A stretch of 64,000 nt of DNA from Marsupella aquatica (GCA_973895155.1 OZ316892.1:3289223-3353222); one strand, 5' to 3'. Positions 19,501 to 63,374 are shown, counted from the first letter of the stretch. Program-made: numbers and translations. The notes: generated by a model from the sequence alone, not told the origin.

Positions 19501-20861
19501 TTTCCGGGTTTCCATCGTAAGGTTACGAGCTTCTGTTGTTGCAGCTGTGACCGACAACTGAGGAGCTACAACCAAGAGCTTATTGATTTGCAGCACTGCC
19601 GTGGACGAGGAGCTGTGGAGGGCCGGGGAGCTGCAAGAAAGTGGGGAGTGATCTTGAAGGCCAACTATCTAGCGTGAGGTGGATCATCGTGGCTGCAACA
19701 TTGACCGGGCCTTTTTTTGCGTTGGGCACTGTGAGTAAGGCAGTCTACGGAGGCGCGAAAGAGTCACGAGGAGTCGAGTTCAGCTACGGCAGTATTCACT
19801 TCAATTGTCCCAATGTGGTTGGCGTGAGCTGCAGGTGAGCTTAGCTGTGTGCACATTTCATGTAAGTCAGGTGGTCGGTGTTTTAGGCATTGCGGAACTT
19901 GATTGACCACCCCATGGCTAAGGTTTAAGGTGCGGACTACAACAAATATGTGTTGTTGCTGAAAGTGTTGGTGGTGAGCGACAACTGGTATTGTTTCAGC
20001 TAAAGGGAGCACATTGGAGCTTGTGTATCCATGACCTGCGACCGATTGCGGCTGCCTGTTGTTACAATCGCCGAATCAATCACGCACCCAATCTTGCGGG
20101 CAGACACAACTTTGCGGGAGTGTTGAAGGTTTAGGGTGAGCAACAGCGGAGAGCTCATTGCTTGGTGGCAGGGTTGAAGGTGGATGATCGGGCTGCAAGG
20201 CCAATCGGGGACTTGTTTTGCATTGAGCGATTGCTGCGGATTGCTACGCAGCTTCAGTTAGGGCGGCTTGGTGCTACATCGGCACAGGTAAGGCTGCAAT
20301 CCCCTATCGACGCGGACTCACCTCGTGACTGCAAGTATAGTTGTCTAGGTGATGTATGCATTGCGTGTTTAGGGTCTAGGTGACATCACTGCTAAGCAAA
20401 ATTTGTGAGCTGCCTAGGTCCATTGCCGAATGTTGCTTCCTTTAAATTACCTGGTGCCTGTTGTTACAATCGCCTGCTCAATCATGCACCCAATCGCCTG
20501 GAGCTCATTTGCCTGGAGCTTCATCCGTCAGATTCAAACTGTTATTGCTGCTCTGCCCTTTTGCCATGGGTTGCCGGCCTACCGGATGCTATCAACAGAT
20601 TAAGAACAAGTCATATCCTAAGTCCCGGTGTTGCAGTGATGTCCCCGACCCTAAGATGCTTTCCGAACTCATCTTTCTTGTTTCCTGTTGCTGCTGATGT
20701 ATGTATGTTCTCCCCTATTTTTGCTTACAGATTGGTCTCTCCACACTTCTTGCTTGACATGATTGTTTTGCTCCTCCCTGTATCAGAACATGCCTTGTGC
20801 CCGGCGGTGGGGTGGGGGGGTGAACAGATGACCTTAAGGTTCACTACATTTCTAGGAACTG

Positions 20862-21025
20862 TGCATCTTTCAGCTGATTTTAGCCGCAAGTTCCCTTGCT
20901 TTCCCCTGTTTTTGCTAAGATCCCTCCCACTAATCACATGCATCTTTCAGCTGATTTTAGCCGCAAGTTCCCTTGCTTTCCCCTGCTTTTGCTAAGATCC
21001 CTCCCCACTAATGACATGCATCCTT
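20862..21025 (+). repeat. About 77-bp tandem duplication
   Basis: TGCATCTTTCAGCTGATTTTAGCCGCAAGTTCCCTTGC...CCCACTAAT occurs twice, near-identical. Confidence 0.85.
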
Positions 21026-23544
21026 TACTTTTCTCGGTGGCCCGTGCGCCTGCCTTCCTACTTTCGTTCTTATGGACTCTCCTTAGGTTTTCATTCACCT
21101 GGTTTTGGACTTTTTGCTCCGGTGGAATCTGTCTTGACAACTTGTGTTTGTTCTAATTGTTAATATCTCAAGAGGGTCGTCAACTAAGCTGAAAGGAGTC
21201 AAAGCTAACTACAAGCTAGCAAATACAGAGAATGCTCCCAAGTTGAGTCAGGAGGAAGTTACTAAAACTAGACCTTCACAACTCTCGAAACTGGAAAGTG
21301 AAATTCAGCGTGAGACACGTAGCTGAAGGCCACAAGGATAACTATATGGCCACGCTGTCCCCCATTCAAGTCCAAAGTCCTCTTCAGATTGTCTGAACTC
21401 CTATTGAATGTATTGAATAATTATTTCATCACAGAAATTTTCAGAACAAACACGGAAGCACCAGGGGGCTGAGGATTGGATATTGAGGCTGAAGACATTG
21501 AGGTAATAAACTAGGTGTGGTTCGGGTGACAATGTTAGCAACTGATGCTTCTTCAGGGGAACTTCCCATGTGCAGTTTATCCACACATGATTGACTTTGG
21601 TTCTTGCTGTTTTTCTTTTGGTGTACTCTTGAGTTTGGTGTCACTCTATCCTTTCCTGTAGCCTCGAAATAGGAACACACCTGCTTAGTGGTCCCCAATC
21701 GCCCAATGATTTATAATGACTGTGTCTAGGTGATGTATGCATTGCGTGTTCATTCCAGAAGAATGAATATGTACACTTTGCACAAACCTGGACAGATTTT
21801 GAATGTTATTTATCTGAGTTTCTGTTTGTGAGCTCTGACTTGGAGCCTTAACATTTGTGTTTCTGTGGGGCTGAGCAGAGTTTGTTCCGTCTAGAAGCTG
21901 CTGTACTGAAGTGATCAGCCTCCGGCTTGGAGGTGAATCTTCAATTTTTTGTGGATCCGAGTGACTTCTGTCCAGCTGAGTTTTGCTTTGTCGGGACGAT
22001 TGTGTTTGGCTAAGATGCTAGATTGTGGCTTGTCTTCTTGCTTCCAGCTTGTGTATTTTCAATTAATAGAAGTTGGGAACAAAGTGATAATTGAATTTCC
22101 TTATATTAAGCATCTTCACCTAGAAACTCAATACATAAACTCCAGGATTCCCTCGGGACATAAAATGAGCCAAATTGTCTCAAAATTGGGAACCTGCACC
22201 CGCACTACTCAAACAATTGTGTTGGGCTTGGTGGCCTTGTAAGTCGTCTTTAGCTTTCGCAATGGAGGTTGAATCTTGCAGTACGTCAAGGGGAACTTGA
22301 TCTTTGAATCATGGAACTGCTTGGTACTTTCTCGCTTGCACAGAGAGACAGGGACTGTCGTAGTCTTCATGATCTGGATGCAAGGGAACCGAACTCTATG
22401 ACAAGAAGCCATCTCATCATACATCTACTCTGCAGCTCCGTTTCTTGTGGTATCACAATATTCCTTGTACATGTTGTGATAACCTGTACGACTCTGATAC
22501 GTGGACCCAGATACCGAAGTTCTTAATTGTGGTGGGCTTCTTTTCGAAGATCTGGTAGACACATTATTCAACATTTGCTAACTTCGAAACTAGAAGGGTA
22601 ACACATTAAACAACAGAGAAACTCACAACATCCTCCTTTGGTCCTTCAGAGTCTGTACTTTGATTCTGAAGTTTGACTGAGTTTTTGTTTACTAAAAGAA
22701 TGTGACTGTGTAAGAGTTCCGTTTGGCAGTGGATTGGTTGAAGCACTTCATGCTAGTGTGTTGTCCACAGCTCTTCAACCAGCTTTCATCTTCCTTGTCT
22801 TTCACCACTTACGATGACATCAATTCAGCTAAGACCATAGAAGGTTCCAAAGCATCTAACTTGTAAAATCGCATTCTGTTACATCAAGGACTAAGGTGTT
22901 GGGTGCCAAAGGAGACAACACAACAAACACGCTGAAAAGACTTCAGGACTGGGTTCAACAAGGTAGTGAAGGTGCTTAGAGCCATAGTAAGTATGCATTC
23001 TGTATCTTTCTCTGTTGATGTGAGCTTGTGCATAATGGGAGTTGTAGTTGGCAAGAGTTCCAAATATGAATAGATCCAGAAGTATGTGATCATGTACTTG
23101 CTCTATAAAGTTCTGAAGATATAAGCATTTTCTGTTAGACCAGGCAACTTGGGAGTTGGTAAGTGTCACCTGCATCTAAGGGGCTACACCGGGGCATCAG
23201 TGGAGGTTCACTTGCACAACACGACAACCAGTGAATTTTCTCTCTGCTGCAACCTGCAAGGTGAGACTTTCGGTCTTTCTGGATGAAAAAACAGGAGTTT
23301 AATATGATTGATATACATGTCCGTCGAGAATATGGGTTTATCACCAAGCTCTTTGTCTTAGGAAACTCATAAACTCAGAATCAAATATGTACTATGCACG
23401 TTTCATGCTATGTGTATACTATGACCTGTAGTTGGAACCAAGACAATGAGTGGGAACTGATTAGTTTAGGTGGTTGCTGTTGGCGAGGCAAGTCGACCTC
23501 CTGCTCACCTTGCTCATCAAAGGACGTGAACAGAGGACATCACA

Positions 23545-24009
23545 ATGAGAGCAACACTTATGGTGAGGACCCGCAACGCTGAACATGTGCGACTTGCACT
23601 CAAGGCAGAGATGTTGCGCCTTGAGTATGTCAGACTTGGGATCCTTCCAGCCCAGTCTGCATGGTACTTTGAGTACCCTGTTGTTTCCAGGAACAACTAC
23701 AGCCGGCCTCTACCTGCTTCAGTACCCTTCCCGACATCCTTGGTATTTGTGTCTCTTGTACATGACCCGCCACAAATTAGGTGCCAAGGGTGTGTACACA
23801 GTTGCCAATATGACTGTCCTGCCTGTAGGGCTTCTGGCCCAAAATTGGATGACCGTTCTCTTGGATGCCGATTTTTGCACAGAGCACAATGTATCATTTG
23901 GAACCACTCGCCATCCTGCAGTGTGCCTGGTGATGTCACTTGTCCTGCCCTCCCAGACCCCACCACCGGTGACTTTGGTGTCTACACATGTTTGGATCAC
24001 ATGCTCTAG
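23545..24009 (+). CDS. Cys/His-rich ORF of unknown function inside the inner CACTA
   Basis: 154-aa ATG-initiated ORF containing CQGCVHSCQYDCPAC...GCRFLHRAQC; no family recognised. Confidence 0.3.
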   Translation: MRATLMVRTRNAEHVRLALKAEMLRLEYVRLGILPAQSAWYFEYPVVSRNNYSRPLPASVPFPTSLVFVSLVHDPPQIRCQGCVHSCQYDCPACRASGPKLDDRSLGCRFLHRAQCIIWNHSPSCSVPGDVTCPALPDPTTGDFGVYTCLDHML

Positions 24010-24536
24010 AGGACCACTTGTCACACCGCATGCACAGACCAGATACCATTGACCTATAGCTTAACACTCTGACTTCAACACAGAGGATATTTACTTAAAA
24101 TTTTGATGTATGAGCAATTTTGGGTCCAGGGTTTAGGGTCAACAGTACATAACTTATATCCTATTATGCCTGCACTAAGCAAAATATCCTAATTTAAGAG
24201 GCTAGCAAACTCGCATAAAAGTCTCTATTGAAAGATTGCTTTCATGACTGCTTTAATCTGGTGAACATTGCAACGTTGAATGATTAATGGGCCATGTGAT
24301 AATATGCAAAATGATTTATGCCTCACTTATTTGTCTCAGCCACTATCATAACCTATTTAGGATGTATAAATTTCAACCCTTATGACACTGCTTCATACCA
24401 ATCCTCTTCGAAGAATGCCTGTTTTACATGTCACGACTATTGTATGTGATTCAAATGCATGAAATGTTGTTGCAGATCTCCTTTGATCAACCTATTCATT
24501 AAAAGTGTATTTTCTTTTGTTCACAAATGAGTCTTG

Positions 24537-24616
24537 AAATGTACACTTTCATGTCCCCAAATGTACACTTCAAGACACCCAAATGTACACTTTTGTGTCT
24601 CTGAATGTACACTTTA
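24537..24616 (+). repeat. Left subterminal AAATGTACACTTT motif array
   Basis: Four copies spaced about 21-23 bp apart just inside the left TIR. Confidence 0.85.
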
Positions 24617-24867
24617 TAGGCCAAATCACATTAATATTATATTAATAAATAATACATATTATATTATTTAATAACTCACATAGAAATGGAGGATAAAAAT
24701 TTATAAAGTTATTTCATCCCCATTTAAGGACCAGATATTCTGTGAACAAAATAACATCATTCCAAATAGATTATAAAATATCTTTATACAATTATCTGCA
24801 AATTTACATTGAATACGAACATGTTTCTAGTACTATCCAAGGGGCTTAACACAAGTCAATTAAATAT

Positions 24868-26001
24868 CTAAACCAAGTGCTCCCTACAATGTGTATTTGA
24901 GCATGTGCCCCTGTCTCCTTTCCTATCTACCCTATTGTCACGGTTGCAACTCACTTTATTTTCAGGGAGTTGAAATCTGGTGGTGTTGTTCCTAATGGCT
25001 ATAATCTCCCGCAAAAAGTGTCTGGGATTTTCTCTATATGGACCTGAATAGTCCTTTCCTAAAAATGATTTAGCAAGTGAGTTGACAAGTGCATTGTCAA
25101 GTTCCACCTCAGGACGTAAACTACATATACGGTGCTTTACATTCCAAGGGATCTCATTACTGTTGAGGTCCAACACACTATGTGTAAACTGTGACTTCCA
25201 AATTTTTGCTGCAAATCTCTTGCTAAGTTGATCATAAGTAATCTCATTTTTTGCCTTGTCTCTCTTCATGTGCAAAAGAGACCACTTTGGAGAGTTGAGA
25301 AGAAGATAGCATCTAATGTCACTTGCATGTGATAGTTTCTCAAGACATGGCCAAAGAATTGCTAGAAGAAAATTATCTCCACGATTGGCATGCGTGTAGG
25401 GCACTGGAAATAATCCGGTCATGTCTGGGTTGGCAAATGCCTTAAGGGGGGAGTCATCCACAAGGAGGGTGTTGGTTTCATCATATAGATTTCCAAATGC
25501 ATTCCATACCACCTGAAAATCCTTCAGTAGCACATTTGCCTTTCCGTTTGTAATGTCACGCCTTTGAATGCCTGTGTCAAAGGCTTCCACCTGTGTGAAT
25601 ACAAACTTAAGTTTCAACCGCTCCTCAACAGTGAACATCATGTTCAGCATTTTCACTGTTCGTTCTACCCCAGCACAAGTCCAAATTGCAACGTCAAATC
25701 TGTCAAAAACCAACTTTAGAAACTCATGGAGCCCTGGTCGTTCTGTATACATGCGACTAATACCATTTTTTCTATCCCAATGCACTCCACTTGAGGTGAC
25801 AATATTCCTGGATGTGCCCTTGTTTTGGAATTCAATAGAATCCCAAAGTATTTTATTAAGGTCCAAAATCAGCAACTTCCGCTTGACGGGACCAGGTCTC
25901 GATTCTGCAAGTGCACCAAACACCATTCTCAGAGAAAAGACCAAAAGTGAACTTTGGATTAGGATTGTCTCAGTCCAAAAATACAACACAATGGCTGACA
26001 A
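24868..26001 (-). CDS. FCP1/NIF (HAD-like) phosphatase-homology domain; coding exon probably 25904-24868 plus mini-exon 26083-26024
   Basis: KLLILDLNKIL, ERPGLHEFL..FDVAIWT, LLKDFQVVW, NTLLVDDSPLKAFANP are NIF-family motifs. DLN replaces the DxD motif. Confidence 0.8.
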   Translation of the reverse strand: MSAIVLYFWTETILIQSSLLVFSLRMVFGALAESRPGPVKRKLLILDLNKILWDSIEFQNKGTSRNIVTSSGVHWDRKNGISRMYTERPGLHEFLKLVFDRFDVAIWTCAGVERTVKMLNMMFTVEERLKLKFVFTQVEAFDTGIQRRDITNGKANVLLKDFQVVWNAFGNLYDETNTLLVDDSPLKAFANPDMTGLFPVPYTHANRGDNFLLAILWPCLEKLSHASDIRCYLLLNSPKWSLLHMKRDKAKNEITYDQLSKRFAAKIWKSQFTHSVLDLNSNEIPWNVKHRICSLRPEVELDNALVNSLAKSFLGKDYSGPYRENPRHFLREIIAIRNNTTRFQLPENKVSCNRDNRVDRKGDRGTCSNTHCREHLV

Positions 26002-26143
26002 AAACGAAAATTAACCTACATACCGTTTTTAGAAGCCTCACAATGTGTAGACGGATATGGAGACTTTAATTGGTGAGCCCATTCTGTGAGACCGAGAAGT
26101 ATTTTAGATTGATATGAATAAATAGAAAGTCAAAGGCTGAATT

Positions 26144-29100
26144 TCATTCCGAAATAAGAGATCCGTATTCATCAATAATCATGTCAGCACCAAGCTCCTG
26201 TTGGATTTCAAAATTGACATCTGAAGTACTTTGTTCTACCCAATAAGGAGAAGTCCAAACAGGAGTTATGAACCCCAATTCTCCCCTCTTATACTCCTCC
26301 TTATTGAGAATTGAAGGAGCAGCTTCCAATGATATTTCTTGGCCTCGATTTGGCCCACTTTTCCACACGTAACATCGTGCGTCGCGTTCCAATGACCTCC
26401 ATCCAGTTGATCCAACTCTATTCCCTTTCTTTTTTGAGAACGGAAGGACAACAGGACTCCTCGAGTGTGAACGAACAAACACCAATTTGTCATCAGAAGC
26501 TGAAAAGAGTGTGTCAGGACAAGTTGAAGCACCTGCCTGGTTGTCAACAGCCGTTGATGCATTTCCTCCTGGATTGATGGGAATGTCAGGCAATCCGCCG
26601 GCTTCCCCACGAGTCAATTCGTTAGTTTCAGCTTCATTTGAATCTCCAAGCCTCGTTGCGCCTTCGTTGATCAGATTGGTTGAAGAAAGATGATCAAACA
26701 TATCAACCCTTGCTCCTTCCAGTTGCTCCATCTGTCCTCCCGGCGTTGTTGGATTGGGATCATCCTTGTCCAAGTTATCATCAACTTGAACTTCATGGGG
26801 CCCCGGAGGGATGTCATCTAAACCAGATGAACGGTTTGGTGCAAGTCCAATATCATCATCTACATCGTAAGGCTCACCTTGACCAACACGGTCATCCAAA
26901 TTTTTGACATATGCCTCGTCTGATGCCTCTACGCCTTTAGCCACTTTGTCAGCAACATCTTCAGACTCAGAACCGTCGGATTCAACAGCGACAGCTACAG
27001 CCGCAATAGTGGTAGCCCATTGTCGAGAATTTTCAGCAAGTGATTCACAATGGGCTTTAAGTGAGGGAACTCTCTCGCAAAGGTAGGAAGCAAAAGCTTC
27101 CACAAAATGCCTCTCGGACTGAGAGTCACAATAAACAAAGCATTCCCTATCGCAAAAAAATGATGTCTTCATGACTTGGCCACCGGAGAAAAAATCTAGA
27201 ACCAAATCTCCCGGTTCTGATAAGGATTCAATAATCCTTTGGATCATCCGCGTGGGTTTGGCATGAGGATTAACCCATCCTCCGCGACTACCAACTGTCT
27301 CAAATCGAGGGGCCATATTCATAATCTTGACGGCCTCTTCCGGGTCCAAAACCACTTTTAGGTCGTCGTTTTGTGTCCCCTCATCTGATTCCTTAGCTTT
27401 CCCCTTTCCCTTGTCGATCTTGCATACTTCATAATCAACATCCTTTGAAGTATACAAGAATTTTGGCTTTGGATAGTTGGGCTTGAAAACTTCATTCCAA
27501 TTGACGTCTTCATCTCGAGAAATCCCTGCAAAGATAACTTCTTCAATCCCTCCACCCCAACATGAGTCATGAGGGTGCGGTTGATCATCTCGTGAATAAC
27601 TCCCATACTCAATGTGAATGGTCAAAGCTTTCTCTTGTCCCAATTTACGAAGGGCACCATGGACATTCAGTGCAAGTTGTCCAGGATGAACTGTTATCGT
27701 CACCACAATCGTGGGATTTTGTGGAAGCTCCACAATGTATTCAAAGAGAACAAGAATCTCTGCTTCAGTCCACTGTTTTTGTGGAAGCCGGCTAAAATCA
27801 ACAATGGCAAGAGGGCAGGTCGGAGGAGCTTCTTGCAATGACTCTGGATCAATGGTCTTCATGAGATTGTCGCTAAAAAATGTAACCCATGGTAGGGTCC
27901 GAGAACGTGATCCTCCGCCAAATCTCTGGCAGTATATATCATCTAGGCGGAATACCAATGCCGTCGGCAAGATTGCGCTCTCCCGCGTATGATTTGGCTT
28001 TAAAAGGTTGGCAAGATAGACCTCGCCAGCGGCTCTTCGACACCTGCTGAACTCTGAATCAATTGCTAGCGTAGGAAGAACCTCAACTACTTTCCCCCAA
28101 TTAGTATTTGTCGGGAAATTCACCGCATCCTTGGTGCAATAGTAGTCTTCAATAAGGGACTTGAGTTTCCGCACGATCTTCACATCTTTGGCCAACTCCT
28201 CTATAGATGGCATGTCTGATTTATTAGAGGCATCTTTCTTTAGCAATACCTTTCCTGACTTCACCCGCGTCAGTATTCTTGTGATGTCTCGTTGTGAGAT
28301 CAACTCACCATCAAAACAACGAAACATGGCAACAGTAATTGCTTTTTCAGACTTCTCATTTCCTTCTACACCAGCTCCATCGGGAAGTTTCCCATCCAAC
28401 CACAATTGGCATACCAAACTCCATAAATCAAAAAGAGCATTGTCGGCAAACAGTAACCAGTAGACATTACGACAATCTTTCCTTCCCATGGTCATTCTTG
28501 CAAGAGCCAACCAATCCTACAATTGCAAAGGAAAGTCTGTTAGTTCTCCATAACTCAATTGTTTGAAAGCACTCAGGTGCGGACTGAGACCATCCCAATC
28601 CAACACAGAAGTAGACAGTATCAGTGGAAATATTATATTGAATGTGCATGATTTAGTTTGGACTAGGACCATCCCAATCCAAAACAAAACTAGACGGTAT
28701 CAGTGGAGAAATATTCTACTGAATGTGCATGAATCCATTTGGACTGGGACCATCCCAGTCCAACACAAAACTAGACAATATCAGTGGAAATAGTCTATTG
28801 AATGTGCATGAATCCATTTGGACTGGGACCATCCCAGTCCAACACAAAACTAGACGATATCAGTGGAAATATTCTACTGAATGTGAATGTATCCATTTGG
28901 ACTCGGACCATCTCAATCCAAGGCAAACTTGAAGCTTTGTGGTCAAAGACTACCATCTCAATTGTAATCACACATGGAGAGTCTACGGTATTGTGCCAAT
29001 CAAGCAGTAACACTTCATACCTGAAATTTTTGATTGTCTTGAGCGTTTGTTTTGTTGTCCCCATGTTTTGGCCGGCTAGGTTTTCCACATTCCACAAATT

Positions 29101-31304
29101 GCCGCCTAGCATGAACGACTGTATCTTTGAAGCATGACTGAAACACCATCGTGCTATTGATAGCATTAGATCGCATTGAATGCTCAACTAATATTGATGA
29201 TGGTGTTCGATGAGATAATATTCTTGACTTTCGAAATTCCAGCTTTTTTGCCAATGCTGTTAGCTTGGCATCCTTGTTTGCCCATTCTCGAATCCATCTG
29301 GCTGCTCTGGCTGAATGTTGACCGCTAATGGCAAGGAATTGAACCTCCCCCTTTTTCACGGCTGCTACAAAGTCCCTCCTATCTGATTCCGTGTTGTCAT
29401 ATTGCATTAGGTTTCTATGTTTTGTAGTGTAAGGAATCAAGTCTGCTATGTGTGGTTCATGCCCCGGATTTCTTATCATGGAATTGGCCACCTCCTTTAC
29501 ATGGTCTGCATTCAACATTCTGTAACAGAGTCTTGCCGACGCAGGGAAAATACTCTCTACGGGAATAGAAAATATCGAATTGATCCCAAACGTATAATAT
29601 TGCTCCATTTGTTGTAGTACCTCATTACCTTCTAAGACCTTCTTCTCCTCAGGAGCGTCCAACTGCTCGTCCATATCTTGTGAATGCACTGTCAGGTTTT
29701 CTGTAGTGTCATCCATGATGACACTGTCAATTTTCTGTTTCTTCTTTTGTCTTGGCCTCTTTTCACTTGCACTTGGCTTCTCAACCGGACGTTTCTTCTC
29801 AACTGGCTTCTCAACTTGGCTTCTCGTACTCGGCTTCTCAACTGGCTTCTGAACTCGGCTTCTCGTACTCGGCTTCTCAACCAGCTTCTCAACTGGAAGT
29901 TTCTTTTCAACCGGAGGTTTCCTTTGGCTTTGTTTTTGTTTTCCCACTGCTCTTTGAGAGGTTGCTGCTGTAGTTCCCGCGGTCTCTGTTGTAGGTTCTG
30001 GAGCTTTCTCTGGCGCCTTCTCGGGCACAGGGTTTGTATTCACCGTTGGAAGGTTTCTCGTCTTTGACAAAGATTCTATCCATTGCTTTGCTTTGACTAA
30101 ATCAAAGTTGGGATCAAATGCAACATCCTTATCAATTAAAACACCAGGCTCCTCTGACTCCAACGATAACAATCCAACTTTCTCAAGTAAATTGCTTAAC
30201 GTCCAAGTAGTTGCAAAAGAGAAATTGCCTTGGTGCTTCATCATGTTGAGTTTCAAATATTGAAACCCATACATAATGTCTACTGGAAGCATACCAGTTA
30301 CCCCGATGACCAACTTCTTTGTGTCATATGTCTTTGGAAAAAATCCCATTGACAAAACGCTCAATTCACCACTTGCGTGCCATTCGACATTGAATTCTGA
30401 GGAGTATGCCTTTGACATAAGGTTAACTTTAACCCAGCATGACCTATCGTGCATCTCCAGAATGACCGAATTCATCCCTCTCCCTCCAATGCCAACAGAG
30501 ACCACAGGTCCGCAAACCAAAGTCAGGCTATCATTTGCTCTGCACTTTAAGGTCAAAACAGGTTCAATCGTGCTTGATGGCACTTCATTATTAAGCGGGG
30601 TTCTTGAGAACTCAAGCCCCCATCGGAAGCCTGGGGATCTCTCATCTAGTAAGAATCCGTCCCGGCAGTCGGTCGGTGCAATCGCGGGTTTGAAACCAAC
30701 AAGATCGCTCCCTGCATCATAAAAACATCATCCATGTTAGACTTATTAAGTTTAAAACATTTGAATAACTCTTGTTGGATTAGGATGGTCCTAGTCCAAC
30801 TTGAGATGGTTTTAGTCTTGCTCCTACAATCGAGATTCAATCTCCTGGATGGATTAGGATCATCCGAGTCCAAGTTTGGATTGGGATCATCCGAGTCCAC
30901 GTTTGAATTAGGATCATCTGAGTCCAAGTTCGGATTGGGATGGTCCGAGTCCAACTTTGGATTGGGATCATCCGAGTCCAACTTTGGACTGGGATCATCC
31001 GAGTCCAACTTTGGATTGGGATCATCCGAGTCCATGTTTGGATTAGGATCATCTGAGTCCAAGTTCGGATTGGGATGGTCCGAGTCCAAGTTTGGATTGG
31101 GATCATCCGAGTCCAACTTTGGACTCGGATGGTCCCAGTCCTCTAAGACTTAGGGAGGATAGGTGATGGATACTTACTAGGGATTCTTGATTGAAATTGT
31201 TTGGAGTCTTCAAGTGCCAGTTCTACACTGTCGCTCATAGAGGAGAGGTCAAACTCCTCTGTTGCTTCCACGGAGGACTTCACAAGGACGCGATTCGCTT
31301 CCAT
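26144..31304 (-). CDS. Spliced ParB-like plus N4/N6 DNA-methyltransferase-like protein; exons 31304-31178, 30711-29021, 28516-26144 (1396 aa; possibly extended to the NIF exons, about 1746 aa)
   Basis: Canonical phase-compatible GT-AG introns: 31177-30712 (A|GTAAGT...ATGCAG|GG) and 29020-28517 (CAG|GTATGA...TTGTAG|GAT). ParB-like YRMLNADHVKEVANSM...FLAISGQHSARA. MTase motifs X/I NPHAKPTRMIQRIIESLSEPGDLVLDFFSGG. No stops. Confidence 0.72.
28580..28925. repeat. About 79-bp tandem repeat (about 4.5 copies) in intron 2 of the cargo gene
   Basis: Unit CAGTGGAAATATTCTACTGAATGTGCATGAATCCATTTGGACTGGGACCATCCCAGTCCAACACAAAACTAGAC. It contains the reverse complement of the 27-bp core. Confidence 0.9.
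30775..31141. repeat. 27-bp minisatellite in intron 1 of the cargo gene
   Basis: Unit TTGGATTGGGAT(GG/CA)TCCGAGTCCAA(G/C)T, about 11-12 copies. Confidence 0.93.
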
Positions 31305-32366
31305 CTTTCTGACATGTGGCAGAGTGACACGTGGCTTCTTAGCAGGCGTCCGATTTAGGGCAATGAAAAAGAATGGAGGTGGAGGCGGAAGCAGGCAGAG
31401 GCGGGGAGGCGGAGAGAGAGCGGAGAGCAAAGAGCGAGGAGAGCGAGCGAGTGAAGGCAAAGAGCAGAGAGCGGAGGCGGAGAGTGGAGAGCGTGAGCAG
31501 AGTGAGGAGCGAAAGAGTGAGAATGAGAATGAGGTCCTGGCTGGACCTCTCCGTCCCTTTACCCCCTCCTGCCTCACCCCGGCCTGCGTACGGCCGGTTG
31601 CCTCCTTCTCCTACGTACGGCCTGATAGTGCGTACGGCTTGCTCCTGCGTACGGCCCGTTGCCCGCACCCTGCATACGGGCCTCCTTCCTTGATGTCCTG
31701 CCTACCTAACAGCCTTGCACGGTAGTCCCCGCGCAATTAGGCTCGTGAAGATAAGGTGTGCCGCAAGCTAAGGTGAAGGGGTACTCAACCCTTATCTTCA
31801 CGCGATTTCCGTTTGAGCCGACTCGAGCAAAGGGTATATTTCGGGAGACGCCCACTTCGGAGCTCATTCTTGTTCTAGTTTCCCAAATCTAAGCTCCATG
31901 TAATCCGGAGTTTCTCTTAAAGTGTTATGTATTGAGCCACTTACCTTCAATGGGTCAGCTTAGCCAGCTTCTTGACTTTTGGGGTCCTCTCAGTTTATCT
32001 TTTACAGACATGTGTGGTTTAGGGTTCAGTTTGTTTTTTACTCCCAAGATTTAGTGGCATATAGCTTGTATTTCAGGGTTCTGGGAAAGTTTTTACCAAT
32101 CTACAGACAACAATGTATCCCCCTTGGATGTGATATTCATATTCTACCAGATCTTAATACTAAGGTGAGTATAAGGTTAACGCATTCAAATATAAGGCTA
32201 GGTTTCATTATTTCATGAAACTGTATGTAGACATTAGGGTCTACCTTAAGACCACGCAAACTTTAGGCTACACCATATAGGGAGATCCGTAAAATACGGA
32301 GTCTTCCTAAATTTGGAATTTTCTTAGCTTAAAATGTTTGAAGTTTATCTCCCGTTACATTATGGG

Positions 32367-33135
32367 TTGGTCTAGGATGGTCCTAGTCCAAGTTTGGATT
32401 CAGATGTGGACTAGGATCATCCGAGTCCAACTTTGCATTGGGATCATCCGAGTCCAACTTTGGATTGGGATGGTCCGAGTCCAAGTTTAAACTTGGATGG
32501 TCCAAGTCCTAGTTTGGATTGGGATGGTCCGAGTCCAAGTTTGGACTTGGATGGTCCAAGTCCTAGTTTGGATTGGGATGGTCCGAGTCCAAGTTTGGAT
32601 TAGGATGGTTCAAGTCCAACTTTGGATTGGGATGGTCCGAGTCCAAGTTTGGACTTGGATGGTCCAAGTCCTAGTTTGGATTGGGATGGTCCGAGTCCAA
32701 CTTTGGATTAGGATGGTCCGAGTCCAACTTTGGATTGGGATGGTCCGAGTCCAAGTTTGGACTTGGATGGTCCGAGTCCAAGTTTGGATTGGGATGGTCC
32801 GAGTCCAAGTTTGGATTGGGATGGTCCCAGTCCAAATCCAGAATCGGAGGATCGTACTCCAAATCTAGACTCGGAGGATTCCAGTCCAAATCCGAACTCG
32901 GATGGTCCCAATCCAAATCCATAATCGGAGGATCGTAGTCCAAATCTAGACTCAGAGGATTGCAGTCCAAATCCGGACTTGGATGGTCCCGGTCAAAATC
33001 CGGACTCGGATGGTCCTAGTCCAAATCCAGAATCAGAGGATCGTAGTCCAAATCCGGACTTGGATGGTCCCGGTCCAAATCCGGAATTGAAGGATCGTAG
33101 TCCAAATCCAGACTTTGAGGATCGCAGTCTGAATC
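32367..33135. repeat. 27-bp-family minisatellite upstream of, or intronic to, the transposase ORF
   Basis: Same unit as 30775-31141, grading into GGATCGTAGTCCAAATCC variants. Confidence 0.93.
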
Positions 33136-33175
33136 AAAATTTGCATGACTTTGGTTGTAATCCATTTTTTTCAGT

Positions 33176-36100
33176 GTGCAGGATAATAGGAAAAGGATGT
33201 CTCAAAGGTTTTCTAGGGGCGATGATGTGACCTTGACAATGGATGGTTACGACGTTGGAAATGGGACAGTTCAAAAGACAGATCCGCAAGAGAGTGTTCA
33301 AAATATTGTGCTGGGAGAGAATCGAATTGGGGTTCTCATTGAGAAGGCCTTTGGTGAGACCAGGAAGCTCCCTTTTCCAATGCCTAGGGCGGAAAATCTT
33401 CATGATGCCATTGACTCATGTGTCATTTGGGATATGTCATGTGCATATCGATCTGCGGATAAGATTACTCAAAAACGCATCAGTATTGGTAGTTGTTCGA
33501 CTCGAAAAGATAACAACATCCATAATTCTGCAAATGTACAGGAGGATGCTTCGACCACCCTAAGGCCAGGTGATGAGGTTGAAATGTTTATCTCTGGCCA
33601 TTGTGTGGCCTTTGGAGTTGTTTTCAACACTGATCCAATGGAGAGATGTCATAACATATTACTCGGTGAGTCTCGGGTTAGTGTAAAAATCACAGATGTG
33701 ATTCATGGTAGTAAGACTTTACCTTACGCACATGGTGGAGCTGCAACAATTGAAGAGGCAAAGGGCTCCTGGGTTCTATGGGATGTGGCTGACGTCCACA
33801 ATAAAGTATGGAATGTTGATATCGATGGGAGCAACAAATCTTCCTCTAAGAAGCAGAAGGACAAGGCGGATTTTGTTTCACAGTCTTGTTCGGCAAACAC
33901 CACAGACACTAAGTGTGACTATTTTCATCGGGCAAACTGGATGTCAGAGTTGGTTGAACTCTACACTGGTTTGGATCGAACCAAAATGGTTGCCACGGGA
34001 ACGATCACTGTCCCTCAAGTGATGGCGGCAGTTGATGATGAAATTCTTGGTGATGACCATGTTGGGATTGCTGTGAAAGATGTCGTGGCAGCACAATACT
34101 TTCCCAACATCCACAAGGGAGTAGTGAGTTTGATTCGATGGCGGATTGATTCAACAAAACTAGTTGCAAATGGAAAATTTTTGTCAGATATTTTGGTGGA
34201 AGGTTCTGAAAGGATGGACTCAATGGATAGGGATGAACTCAATGCGGATGTAAGTGATAGAGGAGTACTGCGTTCAAGGCCCTACAATTTTAACAAGAGG
34301 AATCAAGTAGATCCAAATGAAAAGAAGAGGAGGTTGTTGGAAACCAAGGCAATTTCAAAAACAACAGAGGCGTCAATTGATGACGTGAAAAGAGAAAATT
34401 GTTGCAAGCAAAAATGTTGTCTCATTATCCCAAGGGAAAACATCGAAGATATTAGGATGGAATTTCATGGGATGTCAAGCGAGTCAAAAACGTCACACAT
34501 TTTCAACCTCTTTCACTATAGAGAGGATGATGTTCGTGATAAGGGACACCATGTTCTTAAGGGTATGGTCGTATGCAGACATGCATTTGCAATTATCCAC
34601 GGTTTTAGCCACACCAAATATTATGATTACAAAAGGAGATATGTGGAGGGTTGCAAAATTGGGTTCCATGGCAATACGGGCTTGATGAAAACAAGGGCAA
34701 ATACCTTGCATGCACGAGCTCTGTTGGAGGCTTTTTTGACTCGAAATGCAGAGCCCATGCCTCATATGCCTTATGGAGGGGCACATGGGACAGACTCTAT
34801 TGAGTACCGTCTTCCGGCGTGTTACAAAAAGCTAGAGATTCTGGAAGATGTGAGAACAAAGATGAAGGAAGAAGGGCTTCCTCCTGTCACAGAGAATACT
34901 CTCTACAAGATCTGGAGTAACTCATTTGCAAACTTCAGTTTTCATAAAGATGGTGCATTTGCCAAGTGTACTCTTTGTTGTGAATACAAAGACAGTTTGA
35001 TGCGAGAAAGAAGGAAAAAAGAACGTGCTGAAATTGAAGAAAAACGAGCGCAACATCTTCGTGAGCAAATGTCACGTAGATATGTTTACTACGCTCATCG
35101 AGTGATGGCCAAACAACACCCAGGAGAATATCTTTGCATTATTCACGACAAGATGGATCAAGCAAAGACATGGATTCCAAAAATGGTTAGTACTCCTAAA
35201 TCTCTTTCGGGTCATGGAATGCCGCTACCTATTGCTCTCACAGGGATGTTGACCCACGGGAGGGATCCAGGAGTTTATGCACACTTTAGTGTCACTGGCC
35301 TTTGGCCAGGAGATGCCGATTTCACGGTGACATCCTTGGCTAAGTGTCTTCGAGACCTTGAAGAGTACAATGGAGACAAGACAGGTGACATGTTGGATGG
35401 CCTTCATTGGGAACCTCACAGACCTTTCTTTCAAGCCCTACTTGACTTTGAAGCATTTTTGACGGGTTATTTGGAACCAAAGAATATACCGGTGAATAGG
35501 TATATTGGTTCTGAAGATGGAGCTGAGAGTCGGACTGAGACCGTCCCAAACCAGCAAGATGAGGATGATGGAGAAGACATGCAAGGAGAGCAAGGCAGTC
35601 CATCGTTCAAGCCCTTGCCAAGGCACCTAACATTGCAGATGGATAATTCAGCAAAGGACAACAAAAACCAGACTGTCATGGCATTTTGTAGCGAGCTTGT
35701 GAGTAGAGGAGTATTTGAAACTGTTCAAATGTCTTTTCTAATGGTTGGTCATACACATGAAGATGTTGATGCACTCTTTTCAAAGGTATCATATCAAGTT
35801 CAGCACAAAGAAGTTGCAACCCTCCTTGCTCTTATGGCAGAGGTATGGGAATGCGAGAGCATTCATCCAGTTCCCAGATTGATACAAGAAGTTGCATCTT
35901 ACAAAGAATATCTTCAAACTTTCAAGGTGAAAGATATTCAAGGTCACTCAAAACCTGTATCATTTCTTTTCTCTATGAGAGATAATGTACCAATATTTCA
36001 GTATAAGTCCCATGTAAAGCAAGCTTGGGCTCCACTTGGTGGAAGGTGCATTTGGGCAACAGATCTGACAACAAATTCTCTTCTTTTACCAAGTGGAGAG

Positions 36101-36958
36101 CCCTTAGCTAAATCCATTGGAGAGATACACAAAAAATCTGAAGAGATTATCCCATTTCTTAACAAGTACCTTGATTTTTTGAGAAGGAGTTGCACTGATG
36201 AGACATCTATAGCATATAAGGAAAGATTTCCTCTTGTGAAATATTGGGAGAGAATTGTGGAGTTGTTGACAAATGGGCTCGCACTAGAAGGGGAGGGAAG
36301 TACTCAATTTCCCTTGGAAAACAGATTTTGGCCTAAGACTAACCACGGCACTGGTTACAAGGTCAACCAACCGGAACAAAGTGGTCCTCCAAGTGAAGAT
36401 GAGGAGAATGCAGAGATGACGGCTCTTCAAAATGAGGTCTTGGAAGAGATGGAAGATCAGGCAGCACCATTTGTTGGATCTCGAGCTGAGAGAGAACAAG
36501 GACGATGGATTCCTTTACAAGATATTTGTGAAGGAAACTTTGTATTTCTTCGACCCGAGGATGACTGGGAGAATAAAAATGGTGGAGGTCATTTCTGGTT
36601 GGTGAGAGCTTTGGGTTTGGTGGACCCAAAGCATGAAGTCCCAACTACATCTTCAACAAACCCTTCTCTGCCTCGACAGTACGCTCCAATGTTCCCAGTT
36701 GAATGGTGGAGGCCTAAACACTCTAGTAAACTTGATGTGACTGAGAGTGCGCGGTATCTAAATTGTTTCATGTCCACTAAGACATGGGAACGAGATCCAG
36801 GGTTTGGTGAGAATACTCAACATTGGCAGTATGCAAATTCTGCAATGTATGGTTTTAAATCTGGAATGAAAGAAGAAAACATGGCAGGCAGAGGTTTGAA
36901 GATCCCTCGAAATGTTCTACAAACTGTCCAAAATTATCTTCAAAGGATGGACAAGTAG
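33176..36958 (+). CDS. Sola-like (DUF7869-type) DDD transposase with N-terminal repeated beta-barrel domains; true start probably in an upstream exon (acceptor TGTGCAG at 33181)
   Basis: CCKQKCC, VCRHAF and CTLC...H metal-binding motifs. Catalytic-type HDKMDQ, LTLQMDNSAKDNKN and FLMVGHTHEDVDALFS. C-terminal GNFVFLRP..FWLVRA..VEWW barrel. Lies within TIRs with a 4-bp TSD. Confidence 0.85.
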   Translation: MQDNRKRMSQRFSRGDDVTLTMDGYDVGNGTVQKTDPQESVQNIVLGENRIGVLIEKAFGETRKLPFPMPRAENLHDAIDSCVIWDMSCAYRSADKITQKRISIGSCSTRKDNNIHNSANVQEDASTTLRPGDEVEMFISGHCVAFGVVFNTDPMERCHNILLGESRVSVKITDVIHGSKTLPYAHGGAATIEEAKGSWVLWDVADVHNKVWNVDIDGSNKSSSKKQKDKADFVSQSCSANTTDTKCDYFHRANWMSELVELYTGLDRTKMVATGTITVPQVMAAVDDEILGDDHVGIAVKDVVAAQYFPNIHKGVVSLIRWRIDSTKLVANGKFLSDILVEGSERMDSMDRDELNADVSDRGVLRSRPYNFNKRNQVDPNEKKRRLLETKAISKTTEASIDDVKRENCCKQKCCLIIPRENIEDIRMEFHGMSSESKTSHIFNLFHYREDDVRDKGHHVLKGMVVCRHAFAIIHGFSHTKYYDYKRRYVEGCKIGFHGNTGLMKTRANTLHARALLEAFLTRNAEPMPHMPYGGAHGTDSIEYRLPACYKKLEILEDVRTKMKEEGLPPVTENTLYKIWSNSFANFSFHKDGAFAKCTLCCEYKDSLMRERRKKERAEIEEKRAQHLREQMSRRYVYYAHRVMAKQHPGEYLCIIHDKMDQAKTWIPKMVSTPKSLSGHGMPLPIALTGMLTHGRDPGVYAHFSVTGLWPGDADFTVTSLAKCLRDLEEYNGDKTGDMLDGLHWEPHRPFFQALLDFEAFLTGYLEPKNIPVNRYIGSEDGAESRTETVPNQQDEDDGEDMQGEQGSPSFKPLPRHLTLQMDNSAKDNKNQTVMAFCSELVSRGVFETVQMSFLMVGHTHEDVDALFSKVSYQVQHKEVATLLALMAEVWECESIHPVPRLIQEVASYKEYLQTFKVKDIQGHSKPVSFLFSMRDNVPIFQYKSHVKQAWAPLGGRCIWATDLTTNSLLLPSGEPLAKSIGEIHKKSEEIIPFLNKYLDFLRRSCTDETSIAYKERFPLVKYWERIVELLTNGLALEGEGSTQFPLENRFWPKTNHGTGYKVNQPEQSGPPSEDEENAEMTALQNEVLEEMEDQAAPFVGSRAEREQGRWIPLQDICEGNFVFLRPEDDWENKNGGGHFWLVRALGLVDPKHEVPTTSSTNPSLPRQYAPMFPVEWWRPKHSSKLDVTESARYLNCFMSTKTWERDPGFGENTQHWQYANSAMYGFKSGMKEENMAGRGLKIPRNVLQTVQNYLQRMDK

Positions 36959-37210
36959 ACTTAGTTGTTAGAAGCTATAATAATTAAATAGATAGTTACT
37001 AGTTTTTATGTAACTAAGATAGTCACTCATTCAAACATAGTAATTTATGTACTAGTTATTTACTATTCTAATAGTTTTAATGTGATACTATCTCCTCATT
37101 TTCTAAACTTTTGATCATTATAAATATGAATGTTTGCTTTTTCTACATAATTAAAAATGTTTTTCTATTCATTCCTTTCTTTTAAATGATTATAATAAGA
37201 GTTGGTAGGC

Positions 37211-37535
37211 AAATGTACACTTTTTAGGCCAAATGTACACTTTATTGCACTAAAAGTTACACTTTCTAGACCAAATGCACTTAAATGTACACTTGTTAAG
37301 CCAAATGTATGCATTTTGCACTCAAATGTACACTTTCTAGGCCAAATGTACTCAAATGTACACTTTTAAAGCCAAATGTATCTATTTTGATGTTCAAATT
37401 TACACTTTTCATTGCCCAAATGTACACTCTTTAGGCCAATTGTAAACTTTTCTATCCCCAAATGTACACTTTTCATTGGCCAAATGTACACTTTTCCAAG
37501 CCCAAAAGTACACTTTTCACTGCCCAAATGTACAT
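37211..37535 (+). repeat. Right subterminal AAATGTACACTTT motif array
   Basis: More than a dozen perfect or degenerate copies at about 20-22-bp spacing, in the same orientation as the left array. Confidence 0.9.
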
Positions 37536-37715
37536 AAATCAAATAATAATACACTTTTAATGAATAGGCTGATTTTGGTGAATCATAGCCACAATTAAAA
37601 TTGAGGTGTTGGTGGAGAAATTGTATTAGGGGATCAGTTTTGTGTGTGGGCTCAACATACCAAAAGTATGTGTGCTCTGCATCCTTGTGTGGCCATTCCA
37701 ATTCATTGCAGTAGC

Positions 37716-37859
37716 AAATGCCTTTGTACCTTAAATGCTAAATATATTTTACTTTCTGTGCAGTCTGCTAAATTGTAGAGTCTATCTAAATGCCTTTGTA
37801 CCTTAAATGCTAAATATATTTTACTTTCTGTGCAGTCTGCTAAATTGTAGAGTCTATCT
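37716..37859 (+). repeat. Perfect 72-bp tandem duplication
   Basis: AAATGCCTTTGTACC...AGAGTCTATCT at 37716-37787 and 37788-37859. Confidence 0.92.
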
Positions 37860-37870
37860 CATGCGCAGGC

Positions 37871-38551
37871 ATGGCACGGCCTAAAATTCAAGCCAAAAAG
37901 CGTGTGACAGAGGTGAGAAACACAGGTGTACTTGGGGCAGATGCTACTAACTTCTTTGCAAGTCAGATTTTCCAGAAGGCAGCTCATTGTTGTGCCATTT
38001 GTGACGATGGTGGGGGCCTGGTCATTTGTGAGGGCCCTTGCATGAGGCATTTCCACCTCAACCCGGAGTTTGACCTTGCTGCAGAAAACAACTGTCCAGG
38101 GGTGGGCCTCCCGTCAACACACCAGGGAGACTGGATGTGCACTGATTGTTTGGAGAAGCAGGCTAAGTGTGCACAGTGTGGGAAGTTGGGATCCTATGAG
38201 GGCTCTGTTGATGCTGCAGCAAATGTTAGGAAATGTCCAGACCATTTTTGTGTGAGATTTTTCTGTTTTGAGTGTTTGCCTGCTCATGCCACAGCTTGCC
38301 CACTTCATAGGTGCAAGGCATGTGGTGAGCATGATGATGACTACTGGACTGACATAGTCCACTGTGCTAGGTGTCCCACTATGTGGCACTATCATTGCCT
38401 GAAAGATCATCAAGCAGAGGGTTATGCTTGTGACAGAGAAATCTATGATCACTCTGCACATGGTGTTGATTGATGGATATTTTATTGTCATCGCCATGCC
38501 ATTGATCCTACCTCGCGCACTCCTGTGAGAGATCACATATCTTGGCTGTGA
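37871..38551 (+). pseudogene. Stand-alone EDM2/NSD-type composite PHD-finger gene with one premature stop
   Basis: CAICDDGG..CEGPCMRHFH..CxxC..CAQCGKLGS..CPLHRCKAC..CARCPTMWHYHCL. After TGA at 38471 the frame continues WIFYCHRHAIDPTSRTPVRDHISW, matching the EDM2 IYC..H.ID....TPVRDH motif. Confidence 0.82.
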
Positions 38552-39137
38552 AGCTGAACATTGTACATGCACAGTGCACCTGATGTGGATGTACTATTTT
38601 TTGAGATTGCAGAGATTCCAATTTTGAAAAGGAGTTGGGTAGGTGAGTTTATATAGGCAGCACTTATCTTGTGCTCTGGCGTCAGTGGCTCGGTACATGC
38701 CTATACAAACTTATCCTTACAAGCCTTCTTGGAAGTATTTAGGCTGAGTGGTCATTTTCATAAACACTTTCATCAAACTGCTAAATTAAAACAGGACTTC
38801 TAAGTTGTAAGCGTATAAATTATCAGGCATGCAATTAATCAAATTGCCCTATAAGTTTGTCATTGAATGTATCCTCCTTTACAACAAAATATGTATGTGC
38901 CATGACAAGTTGGTTGCACTTCATTTCACCACGGATATGGATTTTGTAGTATATATTCAAACAATGTCCTGCATCCGTGCAGGTGCCTAGTACGTATTGT
39001 TCACATATCCCTTGTACCTATCAAAATCGGACCTGAGCACCAGTGGGCCAGATCAACTCAAAAAGCAGGAATTTTGTTGTCCTTGTATTGTCAGGTGAAC
39101 CCATTCTTCCAAAATTCACTGTCATCACGTAGGGTGT

Positions 39138-40016
39138 GTGTACATGGAGCCTGGTAAACGTAGAAAGTGTGACCACCCAGCAGTGTTTACAGGGGTCAGA
39201 GCGATTTTGGTCCATGGCCAGCATGGGTTGACCAAAGTGCATTGGCCAATTGTACAGAAACGATTCTCTGAGCTCCATGGCACTGTAGTTCAGGACATCA
39301 CTCCAGAGACTACACATGTTGTTGCAGGGACATGGCTATCAGTGATAAAGAAGTGGTCATGGTCCTACATGAATTCTGCAATTACTAAGCAAGGCCTAAA
39401 AGTAGTTGAGGCCTCTTGGATCACAGATTCCATAGCACATAAGATTGTACAGGATACTGAGCAATATGAGTTGTGGGAGGATGAAGAAGCTACTGCATCA
39501 GCTTGGGCTGAACAAGAAGTCTGGGAAGCAAAGGCACGGCTTGCTGATCTCCAATATGGACCTGTACTCAACAAAGGACAGAGCTCTACAAGGCTGAAGA
39601 GTATGTTGGCTGAGGAGACGAAGCAACCAACCCCCATTCTGAAAGGGCTGAGCATGGTATTTGTGGAGGCGGGAATTGGAGAGGTTAAGTGCAAAGTGTA
39701 CAAGTCCACAGTGCTTGACCTAGGTGGGACAGTGGAGGAGAATATAACAGAGGACACCACTCATGTCATTACTAAGTCATATCCCAAAGCCTGCCGCAAG
39801 TTTGGGAAGGGAGACATTCGCTTTTATGTCATGTCCCATAATGTGTTTGTGGTTTCATATGCTTGGCTTGTGGAATCAGTAGCAGCTGGGAAGCGTCAAA
39901 ACCCAATGGACTATGATCTTTTTGAGGCCTGGCCACGGAAGGGTCAAGATCCTTACAGAGAGGACTATGAGACAACAAGTGAGGAATGGGTCATTAGCGA
40001 TTCTGAATCAGAGTGA
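39138..40016 (+). CDS. Tandem BRCT-domain protein
   Basis: Two repeats: VFTGVRAILV..GTVVQDITPETTHVV..VVEASWITDS..YEL and ILKGLSMVFV..LGGTVEENITEDTTHVI..VVSYAWLVES..YDL. Confidence 0.82.
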   Translation: MYMEPGKRRKCDHPAVFTGVRAILVHGQHGLTKVHWPIVQKRFSELHGTVVQDITPETTHVVAGTWLSVIKKWSWSYMNSAITKQGLKVVEASWITDSIAHKIVQDTEQYELWEDEEATASAWAEQEVWEAKARLADLQYGPVLNKGQSSTRLKSMLAEETKQPTPILKGLSMVFVEAGIGEVKCKVYKSTVLDLGGTVEENITEDTTHVITKSYPKACRKFGKGDIRFYVMSHNVFVVSYAWLVESVAAGKRQNPMDYDLFEAWPRKGQDPYREDYETTSEEWVISDSESE

Positions 40017-40449
40017 GGAGTAGTAGCATCAGTTTGGACACAAGTTTTTTTGTATAAATCAGATCATTGAAATAAATGTGATCTTTGAACTAATGTACCT
40101 TGTTATGGTTGGTGGCAGTTGGGCTTATTTTACTGTTGGCGGATTGTTGTTTCCTGCTGCCTGGGGGTGTCACTGTAAACGTACATGCAAAGGCGGTACA
40201 TTTGAGGACAGCAGAGGAGGTGGTGACACCCTCCAACATTTAGGAATTTTGTGTCATTCACTTGACAATAGGTACACTACTTGCGAACCTGTTTTTTTCT
40301 TTTGGGGTGGTTTAGGGTTTGTGAGAATTTAGTACACGTTATGTTAACTCTTTTGGCAGATACAGTCAGGGATATATGGAACACAAATACCACCATTAGG
40401 CATCCTTGTTCACTGCTGTCCATGACTGCAGAGCTCCCAGCCTGTTACA

Positions 40450-44181: not shown

Positions 44182-44337
44182 GTAATGTGAATTGTTTGCA
44201 TGGACATTAGTGAGGGGAAGGATGTGTAATAAAGTAATTCTGAAGCAACACAGATGTATGGATGGATGCCTGGTGATTGTGGTTGCATTGTGTTATACGG
44301 GGTGACCATAGATGACATGTTTTTGTGGTCCAGTAGG

Positions 44338-63120: not shown

Positions 63121-63374
63121 GAGAAATCGGTGCAACAAGATCTCTTCGTAGCAATTACTTCGAGACGATCAAAGCTTTGGGAGCTACCACGATAGTTCTC
63201 GAGCAAGTATAATGTGGAAAATTTGTGGTCTTGGAGCTCTGTCAACAGCACATCGGTAGAATTGCGTCGATTACTAGTACGAAAGCTCGTCTTCTCAAAG
63301 CCGTGCAAGCAAATTTGTGATTTGTGATTGCAATTATCGAGTTTGATTAGGCTCCGTTGTCACCGAATCTAGGC

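Follow-up and report, generated by a model that had tools for sequence, protein, structure and literature searches.

Anti-silencing of VANDAL transposons by their own VANC proteins has been proven experimentally in Arabidopsis (PMC5735166, PMC10398659). A preprint on Bostrychia names VANDAL as the sole transposon for which binding and modification of its own DNA is known (bioRxiv 10.1101/2025.02.11.637652). The same preprint describes a Plavaka (EnSpm) element with PAG3, in which tandem arrays of inverted repeats lie beside a ParB-like gene, and proposes self-binding. In Ectocarpus, the giant Sola1 element Sola1-1_Ec32 carries a ParB-methylase gene on the strand opposite to the transposase, and giant elements with fixed nested insertions are reported (PMC12477816). 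Here we compare with these systems a Sola-type DNA transposon from the liverwort Marsupella aquatica, analysed within a stretch of 64,000 nucleotides (GCA_973895155.1 OZ316892.1:3289223-3353222; hereafter the window). The element contains a 25-bp dyad, in tandem arrays and as lone copies, and a passenger gene, termed cargo, for a protein with a ParB-like region and a methylase fold. We propose, with a probability of roughly 45%, that the dyad is a duplex site for the cargo protein, which by occupancy, spreading or recruitment would keep CpG methylation off the span of dyads.

Comparison with described systems

The Bostrychia element resembles the Sola element in combining a ParB-like accessory gene with adjacent inverted-repeat arrays. 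It differs in its host, a red alga, in its EnSpm transposase and in a ParB domain that is fused to a 2-oxoglutarate oxygenase, the methylase being encoded by a separate gene. The accessible part of the preprint describes neither a motif in open reading frames (ORFs) nor a CpG footprint, whereas the Sola element has both. Sola1-1_Ec32 is likewise a large Sola element with a ParB-like and N4C/N6A methylase gene opposite to the transposase, but it comes from a brown alga, measures 21.5 kb and encodes a methylase that is predicted to be active, while motif IV is lost in the cargo. Palindromic arrays are not mentioned in the main text on Sola1-1_Ec32 (no match to 'palindrom'), nor is an FCP1-like gene in the part accessible.

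With VANDAL/VANC the element has in common an element-encoded protein and a short motif that is tandemly amplified in introns and intergenic DNA; as there, tandem motif repeats occupy the element's own non-coding DNA. However, loss of methylation is described as spreading over VANDAL elements, and in the Sola element it is inferred from CpG content only. VANDAL elements moreover belong to the Mutator superfamily, and their motifs are non-palindromic, 8–9 bp long and absent from the exon probes tested. A VANC-type Pfam match was not found for the cargo. In the bacterial ParB–parS system, palindromic sites are clustered near a gene with a ParB-like N-terminal domain, as in the cargo system. The latter differs in the absence of ParA, in the sequence ISGQHS at the position of the GxxR arginine and in the length of the site (25 versus 16 bp), and a role in partition is not plausible.

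Other reports touch single components. In chlorophytes, Iyer et al. found methylases of another clade that are fused to ParB-HTH, a preprint on a retrotransposon DAM methylase leaves ParB unmentioned in its accessible part, and DUF3723 is known as a conserved cargo gene of Starships. The idea of self-binding is itself already in print for the red- and brown-algal elements. New here are an intact element in a land plant, a defined site that occurs also within ORFs, a pseudo-enzyme as cargo and a matching CpG domain. No land-plant case of such a Sola element or of the dyad was found in the literature searched, which did not extend to journals behind subscription, to Repbase reports or to supplementary files on bioRxiv (for Bostrychia, Fig. 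S13 and Table S6).

Within the window the dyad is confined to the element

The consensus of the dyad is TTGGAYT-N-GGA-NNN-TCC-N-AGTCCAA. A weight-matrix scan with a cut-off of 15 bits was used to compare the DNA inside the terminal inverted repeats (TIRs) of the element (24486..37573) with the 51 kb of flanking DNA. Inside the TIRs 48 dyads of at least 15 bits were found, all of them between 25954 and 35554 (9.6 kb); a weak match of 12.9 bits at 30153 was excluded from this count. The 51 kb outside contain none. The best match there has 10.0 bits, which is chance level, since in 30 Markov simulations matches above 10 bits numbered 0.33 on average and two at most. Thus the observation in a preliminary description of this DNA that the repeat does not occur outside the TIRs holds, and at the level of the window the repeat is not the general genomic minisatellite that this description had named among the findings that would refute it. 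An indirect sign against such a minisatellite, again at window level, is that only 1–6% of the matching contig material continues into unlike sequence. A metagenome scan gave no match to the dyad motif.

Five of the 48 dyads belong to units of 79–81 bp, 11 and 27 to tandem units of 27 bp, and five are lone. Array A (30775..31143, plus strand; one lone dyad and 11 tandem 27-bp units) lies in intron 1 of the cargo gene. Array B (32367..33132, plus strand; one lone dyad and 27 tandem 27-bp units) occupies the 5′ intron predicted for the transposase gene, and array C (28579..28921, minus strand; five dyads in 79–81-bp units) intron 2 of the cargo gene, in the opposite orientation. Tandem Repeats Finder reports three 27-bp arrays, at 30850-31141 (10.8 copies), 32420-32835 and 32828-33129, as well as one with 79-bp units at 28581-28921. 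Hence the arrays, including the inverted copies in intron 2, are where the preliminary description had placed them. The core quoted there has 28 matches with at most three mismatches, against none expected from 100 shuffles, but its exact form occurs only seven times, always in array B.

The three other lone dyads lie outside the arrays. The first (25954..25978, plus strand, 29 bits) precedes the first ATG of an FCP1-like gene by 28 bp and forms the left edge of a CpG-rich span described below. The second (26749..26773, plus strand, 31 bits) is located in cargo exon 3, where the coding strand reads LDKDDPNP. The third is more degenerate (35530..35554, minus strand, 21 bits) and lies in the transposase ORF at the right edge of the CpG-rich span, within a linker that is absent from most relatives; 18 bits were reached in 2 of 300 simulations. 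Both coding dyads fall in poorly conserved linker or tail regions. With these two copies in coding DNA, the earlier claim that introns and non-coding DNA alone hold the repeat fails, and dyads that extend over 9.6 kb, coding DNA included, do more than bracket the divergent promoter.

The 25-mer is retained in the 27-bp units, the 79-bp units and the lone copies, which have unrelated flanks. Positions 7, 11, 15, 21 and 22 are invariant. The least conserved are positions 8 and 18, mirror images of each other, which at 0.05 and 0.15 bits vary almost freely. Lone copies deviate mostly at variable positions. Positions 8 and 18 can pair in 8 of 38 distinct variants versus 10 expected, and no compensatory change was found at any of the 11 dyad pairs, which fits recognition of the duplex rather than of a hairpin. 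Intronic RNA hairpins, acting in splicing control or as a source of small RNA, are therefore highly improbable: although some units of array C fold into perfect stems (−17.8 kcal/mol), the pairs do not covary, no Rfam match exists, and in array A and at two lone sites folding is mostly poorer for the predicted transcript strand than for its antisense counterpart. On these three grounds the hairpin reading was rejected. The unit spacings of 27 and 79 bp correspond to about 2.6 and 7.5 helical turns.

Slippage alone might also be considered. A palindrome prone to it could have expanded neutrally wherever the element tolerates this. Higher-order units of 54 and 81 bp and a degenerate tail, which are usual in slippage, agree with such an internal minisatellite, as does the similar divergence of motif and spacer in the 79-bp units. 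This would leave unexplained the lone in-frame ORF copies with unrelated flanks, the two unit lengths and the CpG step, so that we give it only a small chance. Within array A, 8 of the 11 units have a TCA centre in place of TGG; in array B the left arm of the last 11 units is degenerate. The 3′ part of array B (32838-33132) shows a change of the left arm from TTGGA to CCRGA with the right half kept, so that canonical units give way to degenerate ones. Contigs cover the arrays no more deeply than the rest of the element, and since depth is not a copy number, little weight is given to this. A coding 9-residue repeat in array A (open frame 30646-31149) was also considered and dismissed, because the GT-AG gene model is consistent in frame and none of 120 relatives contains such peptides.

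CpG is retained across the dyad span

Between the outermost dyads (25954..35554) the CpG observed/expected ratio (o/e) is 0.64, compared with 0.27 at the ends of the element, with the motifs masked. The same step is seen at synonymous sites of the element's ORFs, where CpG is used at 138 of 842 opportunities inside the span compared with 16 of 275 beyond it (odds 3.2, p=3e-6), and within the transposase ORF alone (odds 2.4, p=0.018). The controls, non-G (p=0.67), CWG and GpC, are flat. Change points of CpG fitted freely and without the motif fall at 25379 (range 24922-26364) and 35368 (range 35089-35795), and both ranges take in the outermost dyads (25954 and 35530).

Since CpG is kept more than two-fold across the dyad span relative to the ends, the copies are likely docking sites for the candidate passenger protein, which would use them to shield the element from silencing. 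Taken together, the occurrence in three contexts, the ORF copies, the absence from 51 kb, the lack of covariation and the coincidence with the CpG domain support cis-acting sites for protein binding. Of the earlier proposal, cis loading sites for the cargo, the part on cis sites is thereby supported, while the cargo is a plausible candidate for the binder.

The cargo is a candidate binder with a probably inactive methylase fold

The cargo gene consists of three predicted exons on the minus strand. Exon 1 (31178..31304; 127 nt, phase 1) was predicted from GT-AG signals and frame continuity. Exon 2 (29021..30711) encodes an N-terminal domain without an assigned family, a Lys/Pro linker and a ParB-like/DUF3723-like domain with the sequence ISGQHS. 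Exon 3 (26144..28516) encodes a helical region, a beta-class amino-methyltransferase fold with motif IV changed to DFSR, and an acidic tail; the ParB-like domain and the helical region together span about residues 410-810 of the protein. Intron 1 (30712-31177) and intron 2 (28517-29020) are both bounded by GT-AG, and splicing yields an ORF of 1,396 amino acids without stops, in agreement with the earlier assignment of arrays to these introns. Five of nine aligned relatives end a few residues past the exon 2/exon 3 junction, three run into exon 3 and one ends earlier, which supports the position of intron 2. Those cargo relatives that bear a name come from Calypogeia fissa and Riccia.

A search with exon 3 yielded 109 matches at E <= 0.001. 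Its predicted fold (mean predicted local distance difference test score, pLDDT, 76.5) contains the beta-class amino-methyltransferase at residues 206-490 and matches CcrM (Foldseek E=1e-7; Z 18.5, root-mean-square deviation 3.7, 217 residues). The fold is that of beta-class N4C/N6A methyltransferases, with motif IV preceding motif I. The catalytic (D/N/S)PP(Y/F/W) sequence of motif IV is however absent from all 34 alignments that cover the site, among 120 proteins examined; a DPPF anywhere in these proteins was found only in P0099, a weak match. Motif I reads FSGGQ, compared with FAGSG in RsrI. Consequently, the cargo is likely a catalytically dead protein of methylase fold, as judged from its sequence. 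An active methyltransferase that marks the repeats with N4-methylcytosine (4mC) or N6-methyladenine (6mA) would agree with the clear fold and with the conservation of the motif I region across relatives, but is very unlikely in view of motifs IV and I. Since motif IV is lost across the cargo family, peaks of 4mC/6mA from the cargo, which had been suggested as a check, are unlikely, and it is unlikely that the cargo writes these marks. The loss of the catalytic motif narrows the mechanism to binding or recruitment.

For the ParB-like region, the Atlas features group the cargo domain with DUF3723 (0.95); once DUF3723 is excluded, the relative P0112 groups with ParB_N clusters (0.90-0.91). GxxRxxA is the canonical arginine patch of ParB for binding of cytidine triphosphate. 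The cargo deviates from it with ISGQHSARA, of which QHS is shared by all 10 aligned proteins. A metagenome scan for ParB relatives gave 137 pattern matches, none of which was confirmed. Membership of the cargo in ParB is weakly indicated, by the Atlas features. The cargo is a plausible candidate binder of the dyad; the termini of the element carry a motif other than the dyad.

This terminal motif, TACACTT, bears on the transposase as the binder. A subterminal 22-bp array at the left end (24537..24615, plus strand) has the motif in common with the TIR, and likely represents transposase sites. Further subterminal TACACTT arrays lie at the right end (37210..37534, plus strand). Of 19 plus-strand matches to TACACTT in the window, 15 are located at the two element ends, and the motif, being present in the TIR, likely accounts for transposase binding there. 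The nearest dyads are 1.5 and 2.0 kb away from the ends. The Sola transposase could nevertheless bind the dyad, either as a transcriptional regulator or for synapsis, like TnpA of Spm or the AtMu1 transposase. It has a long N-terminal region without an assigned function, sequence-specific activation by transposases is described in a 2026 preprint, and the CpG footprint is equally compatible with this binder. On the other hand, the termini have their own TIR-linked arrays with no dyad less than 1.4 kb from either end, and in algae inverted-repeat arrays adjoin ParB cargo genes of an unrelated transposase superfamily. We consider the transposase an unlikely binder, albeit one of some weight.

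A host transcription or chromatin factor, whose site was captured and amplified by the element in order to stay active, would explain why dyads cluster at the 5′ end of all three genes. However, no dyad of at least 15 bits occurs in the 51 kb of flanks, which include kinase, homeobox and deaminase ORFs, and 25 bp is long for the site of a plant transcription factor. This makes a host factor quite unlikely.

Proposed mechanism and its weight

Returning to the cargo as the binder, we propose that this ParB-like protein, with its likely dead methylase fold, would load at the dyad arrays, presumably as a dimer on each dyad. The 9.6-kb domain between the outermost dyads would then stay less CpG-methylated, and the cargo and transposase genes would remain expressible. 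The retention of CpG would reflect less deamination of 5-methylcytosine in the germline. Tandem amplification within introns may raise the density of sites at low coding cost, as has been proposed for VANC targets. A broader version of this proposal, namely that a widespread family of liverwort Sola elements employs a bacterial-derived, ParB-like pseudo-methylase as a sequence-specific anti-silencing factor which loads at 25-bp dyads and keeps a 9.6-kb domain with sharp borders free of CpG methylation, is possible but more tentative.

Several results weigh against the proposal. The CpG contrast was first noticed post hoc in coarse bins, and CpG is not graded with distance to the dyad (p=0.20). 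DNA without the dyad can have a similar CpG o/e, namely 0.61 in an outer CACTA element that surrounds the Sola element and 0.54-0.75 in other DNA of the window; therefore only the contrast within the element counts. The step could also result from a chimeric origin or from end-directed methylation. Concerning the dyad, conservation is not significantly mirror-symmetric when all 12 position pairs are taken together (rho 0.44, permutation p=0.08), and in the 79-bp units differences are hardly rarer in the motif (16/150) than in the spacer (45/324). Concerning the protein, no ParB sequence match was obtained in Pfam, NCBIfam, PHROG or the PDB, the single-sequence model of the ParB-like region has a pLDDT of only 41, no helix-turn-helix was identified in the cargo, and the helical region (residues 1-205 of exon 3) is without a clear structural match.

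In sister copies, none of 39 listed variable positions over 381 bp falls inside the dyad at 26749, which is only suggestive of conservation (p=0.06), and p rises to 0.48 if both of two hidden variable positions lie in the dyad. Since the list hides these two and omits differences near piece ends, the signal is weak. Five sister pieces with about 80% identity from four runs, which may represent one subfamily, start to align exactly at the first base of the dyad, a coincidence to which seed bias applies. In a single relative from Calypogeia (P0120) the peptide is compatible with the dyad; 10 of 300 shuffles score as high (p ~0.03).

For the algal ParB-like cargo, self-binding has been proposed without a shown effect, and the CpG step described here is a sign of such an effect at the level of sequence. 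As the candidate site is resolved to single bases, the proposal amounts to an experiment with one protein and one oligonucleotide in plants for which a tractable model exists. If correct, it might also provide a 25-bp-specific tool for local protection from silencing. The broader version, if it holds, would add to land plants another VANC-like system that evolved independently of the first and has left a record of its reach in the CpG content of the element. It would also point to what DUF3723-like cargo of fungal Starships may do.

Structure of the Sola element and its other genes

The Sola-type transposon (24486..37573) has a length of 13,088 bp. It is flanked by the target site duplication (TSD) TTTG (24482..24485 and 37574..37577, plus strand), supported by the sequence and by an empty site. 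The left TIR (24486..24517, plus strand; ATCAACCTATTCATTAAAAGTGTATT...) pairs with the right TIR (37541..37573, minus strand) at 91% identity over 33 columns. In public contigs the left flank joins the right flank (two contigs from run X2 and nine from run X3), and this empty site therefore identifies a 13,088-bp insertion with a 4-bp TSD. A doubt about the TIRs, whose flanks are high-copy too, was dropped on account of the empty site and of the ends of the enclosing CACTA element. The Sola superfamily is defined by a DDD transposase, a 4-bp TSD and TIRs of at least 11 bp (review PMC10741241), in agreement with the TTTG duplication, the 33-bp TIR and the empty site found here. Preference for AWWT targets is cited as a hallmark of Sola1 (PMC3845634); the TSD of the present element, which is one insertion only, is TTTG and thus not of this type. 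DNA related to the element was found in four organisms among public sequencing runs; the seven runs listed with it include no RNA run, which carries no information on expression.

The transposase gene (33197..36958, plus strand) encodes an intact Sola-type DDD transposase of 1,253 amino acids (Pfam DUF7869, E=2.9e-43). The sequences HDKMD, MDNSAKDNKN and GHTHEDVD, which we take to represent the DDD triad, are intact, and all 15 aligned proteins share the three acidic motifs. A region search yielded 67 transposase relatives. Of those that bear a name most belong to Riccia sorocarpa, which together with the names of the cargo relatives points to a liverwort host. The 5′ intron of the gene, with a donor at 32165 and an acceptor at 33174 or 33181, was predicted from splice signals only. 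Between the transposase and cargo genes lies a GC- and GA-rich divergent region (31305..32164), likely a bidirectional promoter as judged from its sequence. It contains four copies of CGTACGG/CCGTACG at 31583-31665, with only one other in the whole window.

A third gene (24868..25926, minus strand) encodes an FCP1/NIF-like, HAD phosphatase-like passenger (Pfam NIF, E=1.8e-15). Phosphatases of this type usually carry DLDETL. The passenger reads DLNKIL instead and hence may be another pseudo-enzyme. In a Riccia gene model (P0092) an FCP1/NIF-like domain is fused to a methylase-like domain.

Surroundings of the element

The Sola element is inserted into an inner CACTA element (18049..48629), which is recognized by its TIRs, a 3-bp TSD (CTT) and a Transposase_21 domain at 40426-42354. 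This in turn is enclosed by an outer CACTA element (16736-60824) with the TSD TTT (3 bp). Together they form a triple nest of 44 kb, in which both CACTA elements have intact TIRs and 3-bp TSDs. Directly left of the Sola insertion, within the inner CACTA, Cys-rich ORFs at 23530-24052 have no clear Pfam match. To the right, at 37844-40016, an NSD-like PHD-finger ORF and a tandem-BRCT ORF precede the Tnp2 transposase and may be chromatin-reader cargo. The outer CACTA contains a SET-domain ORF and a DUF4218 ORF (53781-54452, 57536-57991); with its CpG o/e of 0.61 in the absence of the dyad it may own a separate anti-silencing device.

Elsewhere in the window, an inverted repeat of 265 bp (79%; 6891-7160 and 16251-16524) flanks a homeobox ORF (10470-10946) and a kinase ORF (12819-13985) and is possibly Pack-MULE-like. 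A cytidine-deaminase-like ORF at 63351-63998 is preceded by several tandem repeats at 62625-63127. Broken ORFs of a Copia-type retrotransposon (RVT_2, SH3) are located at 3097-4975.

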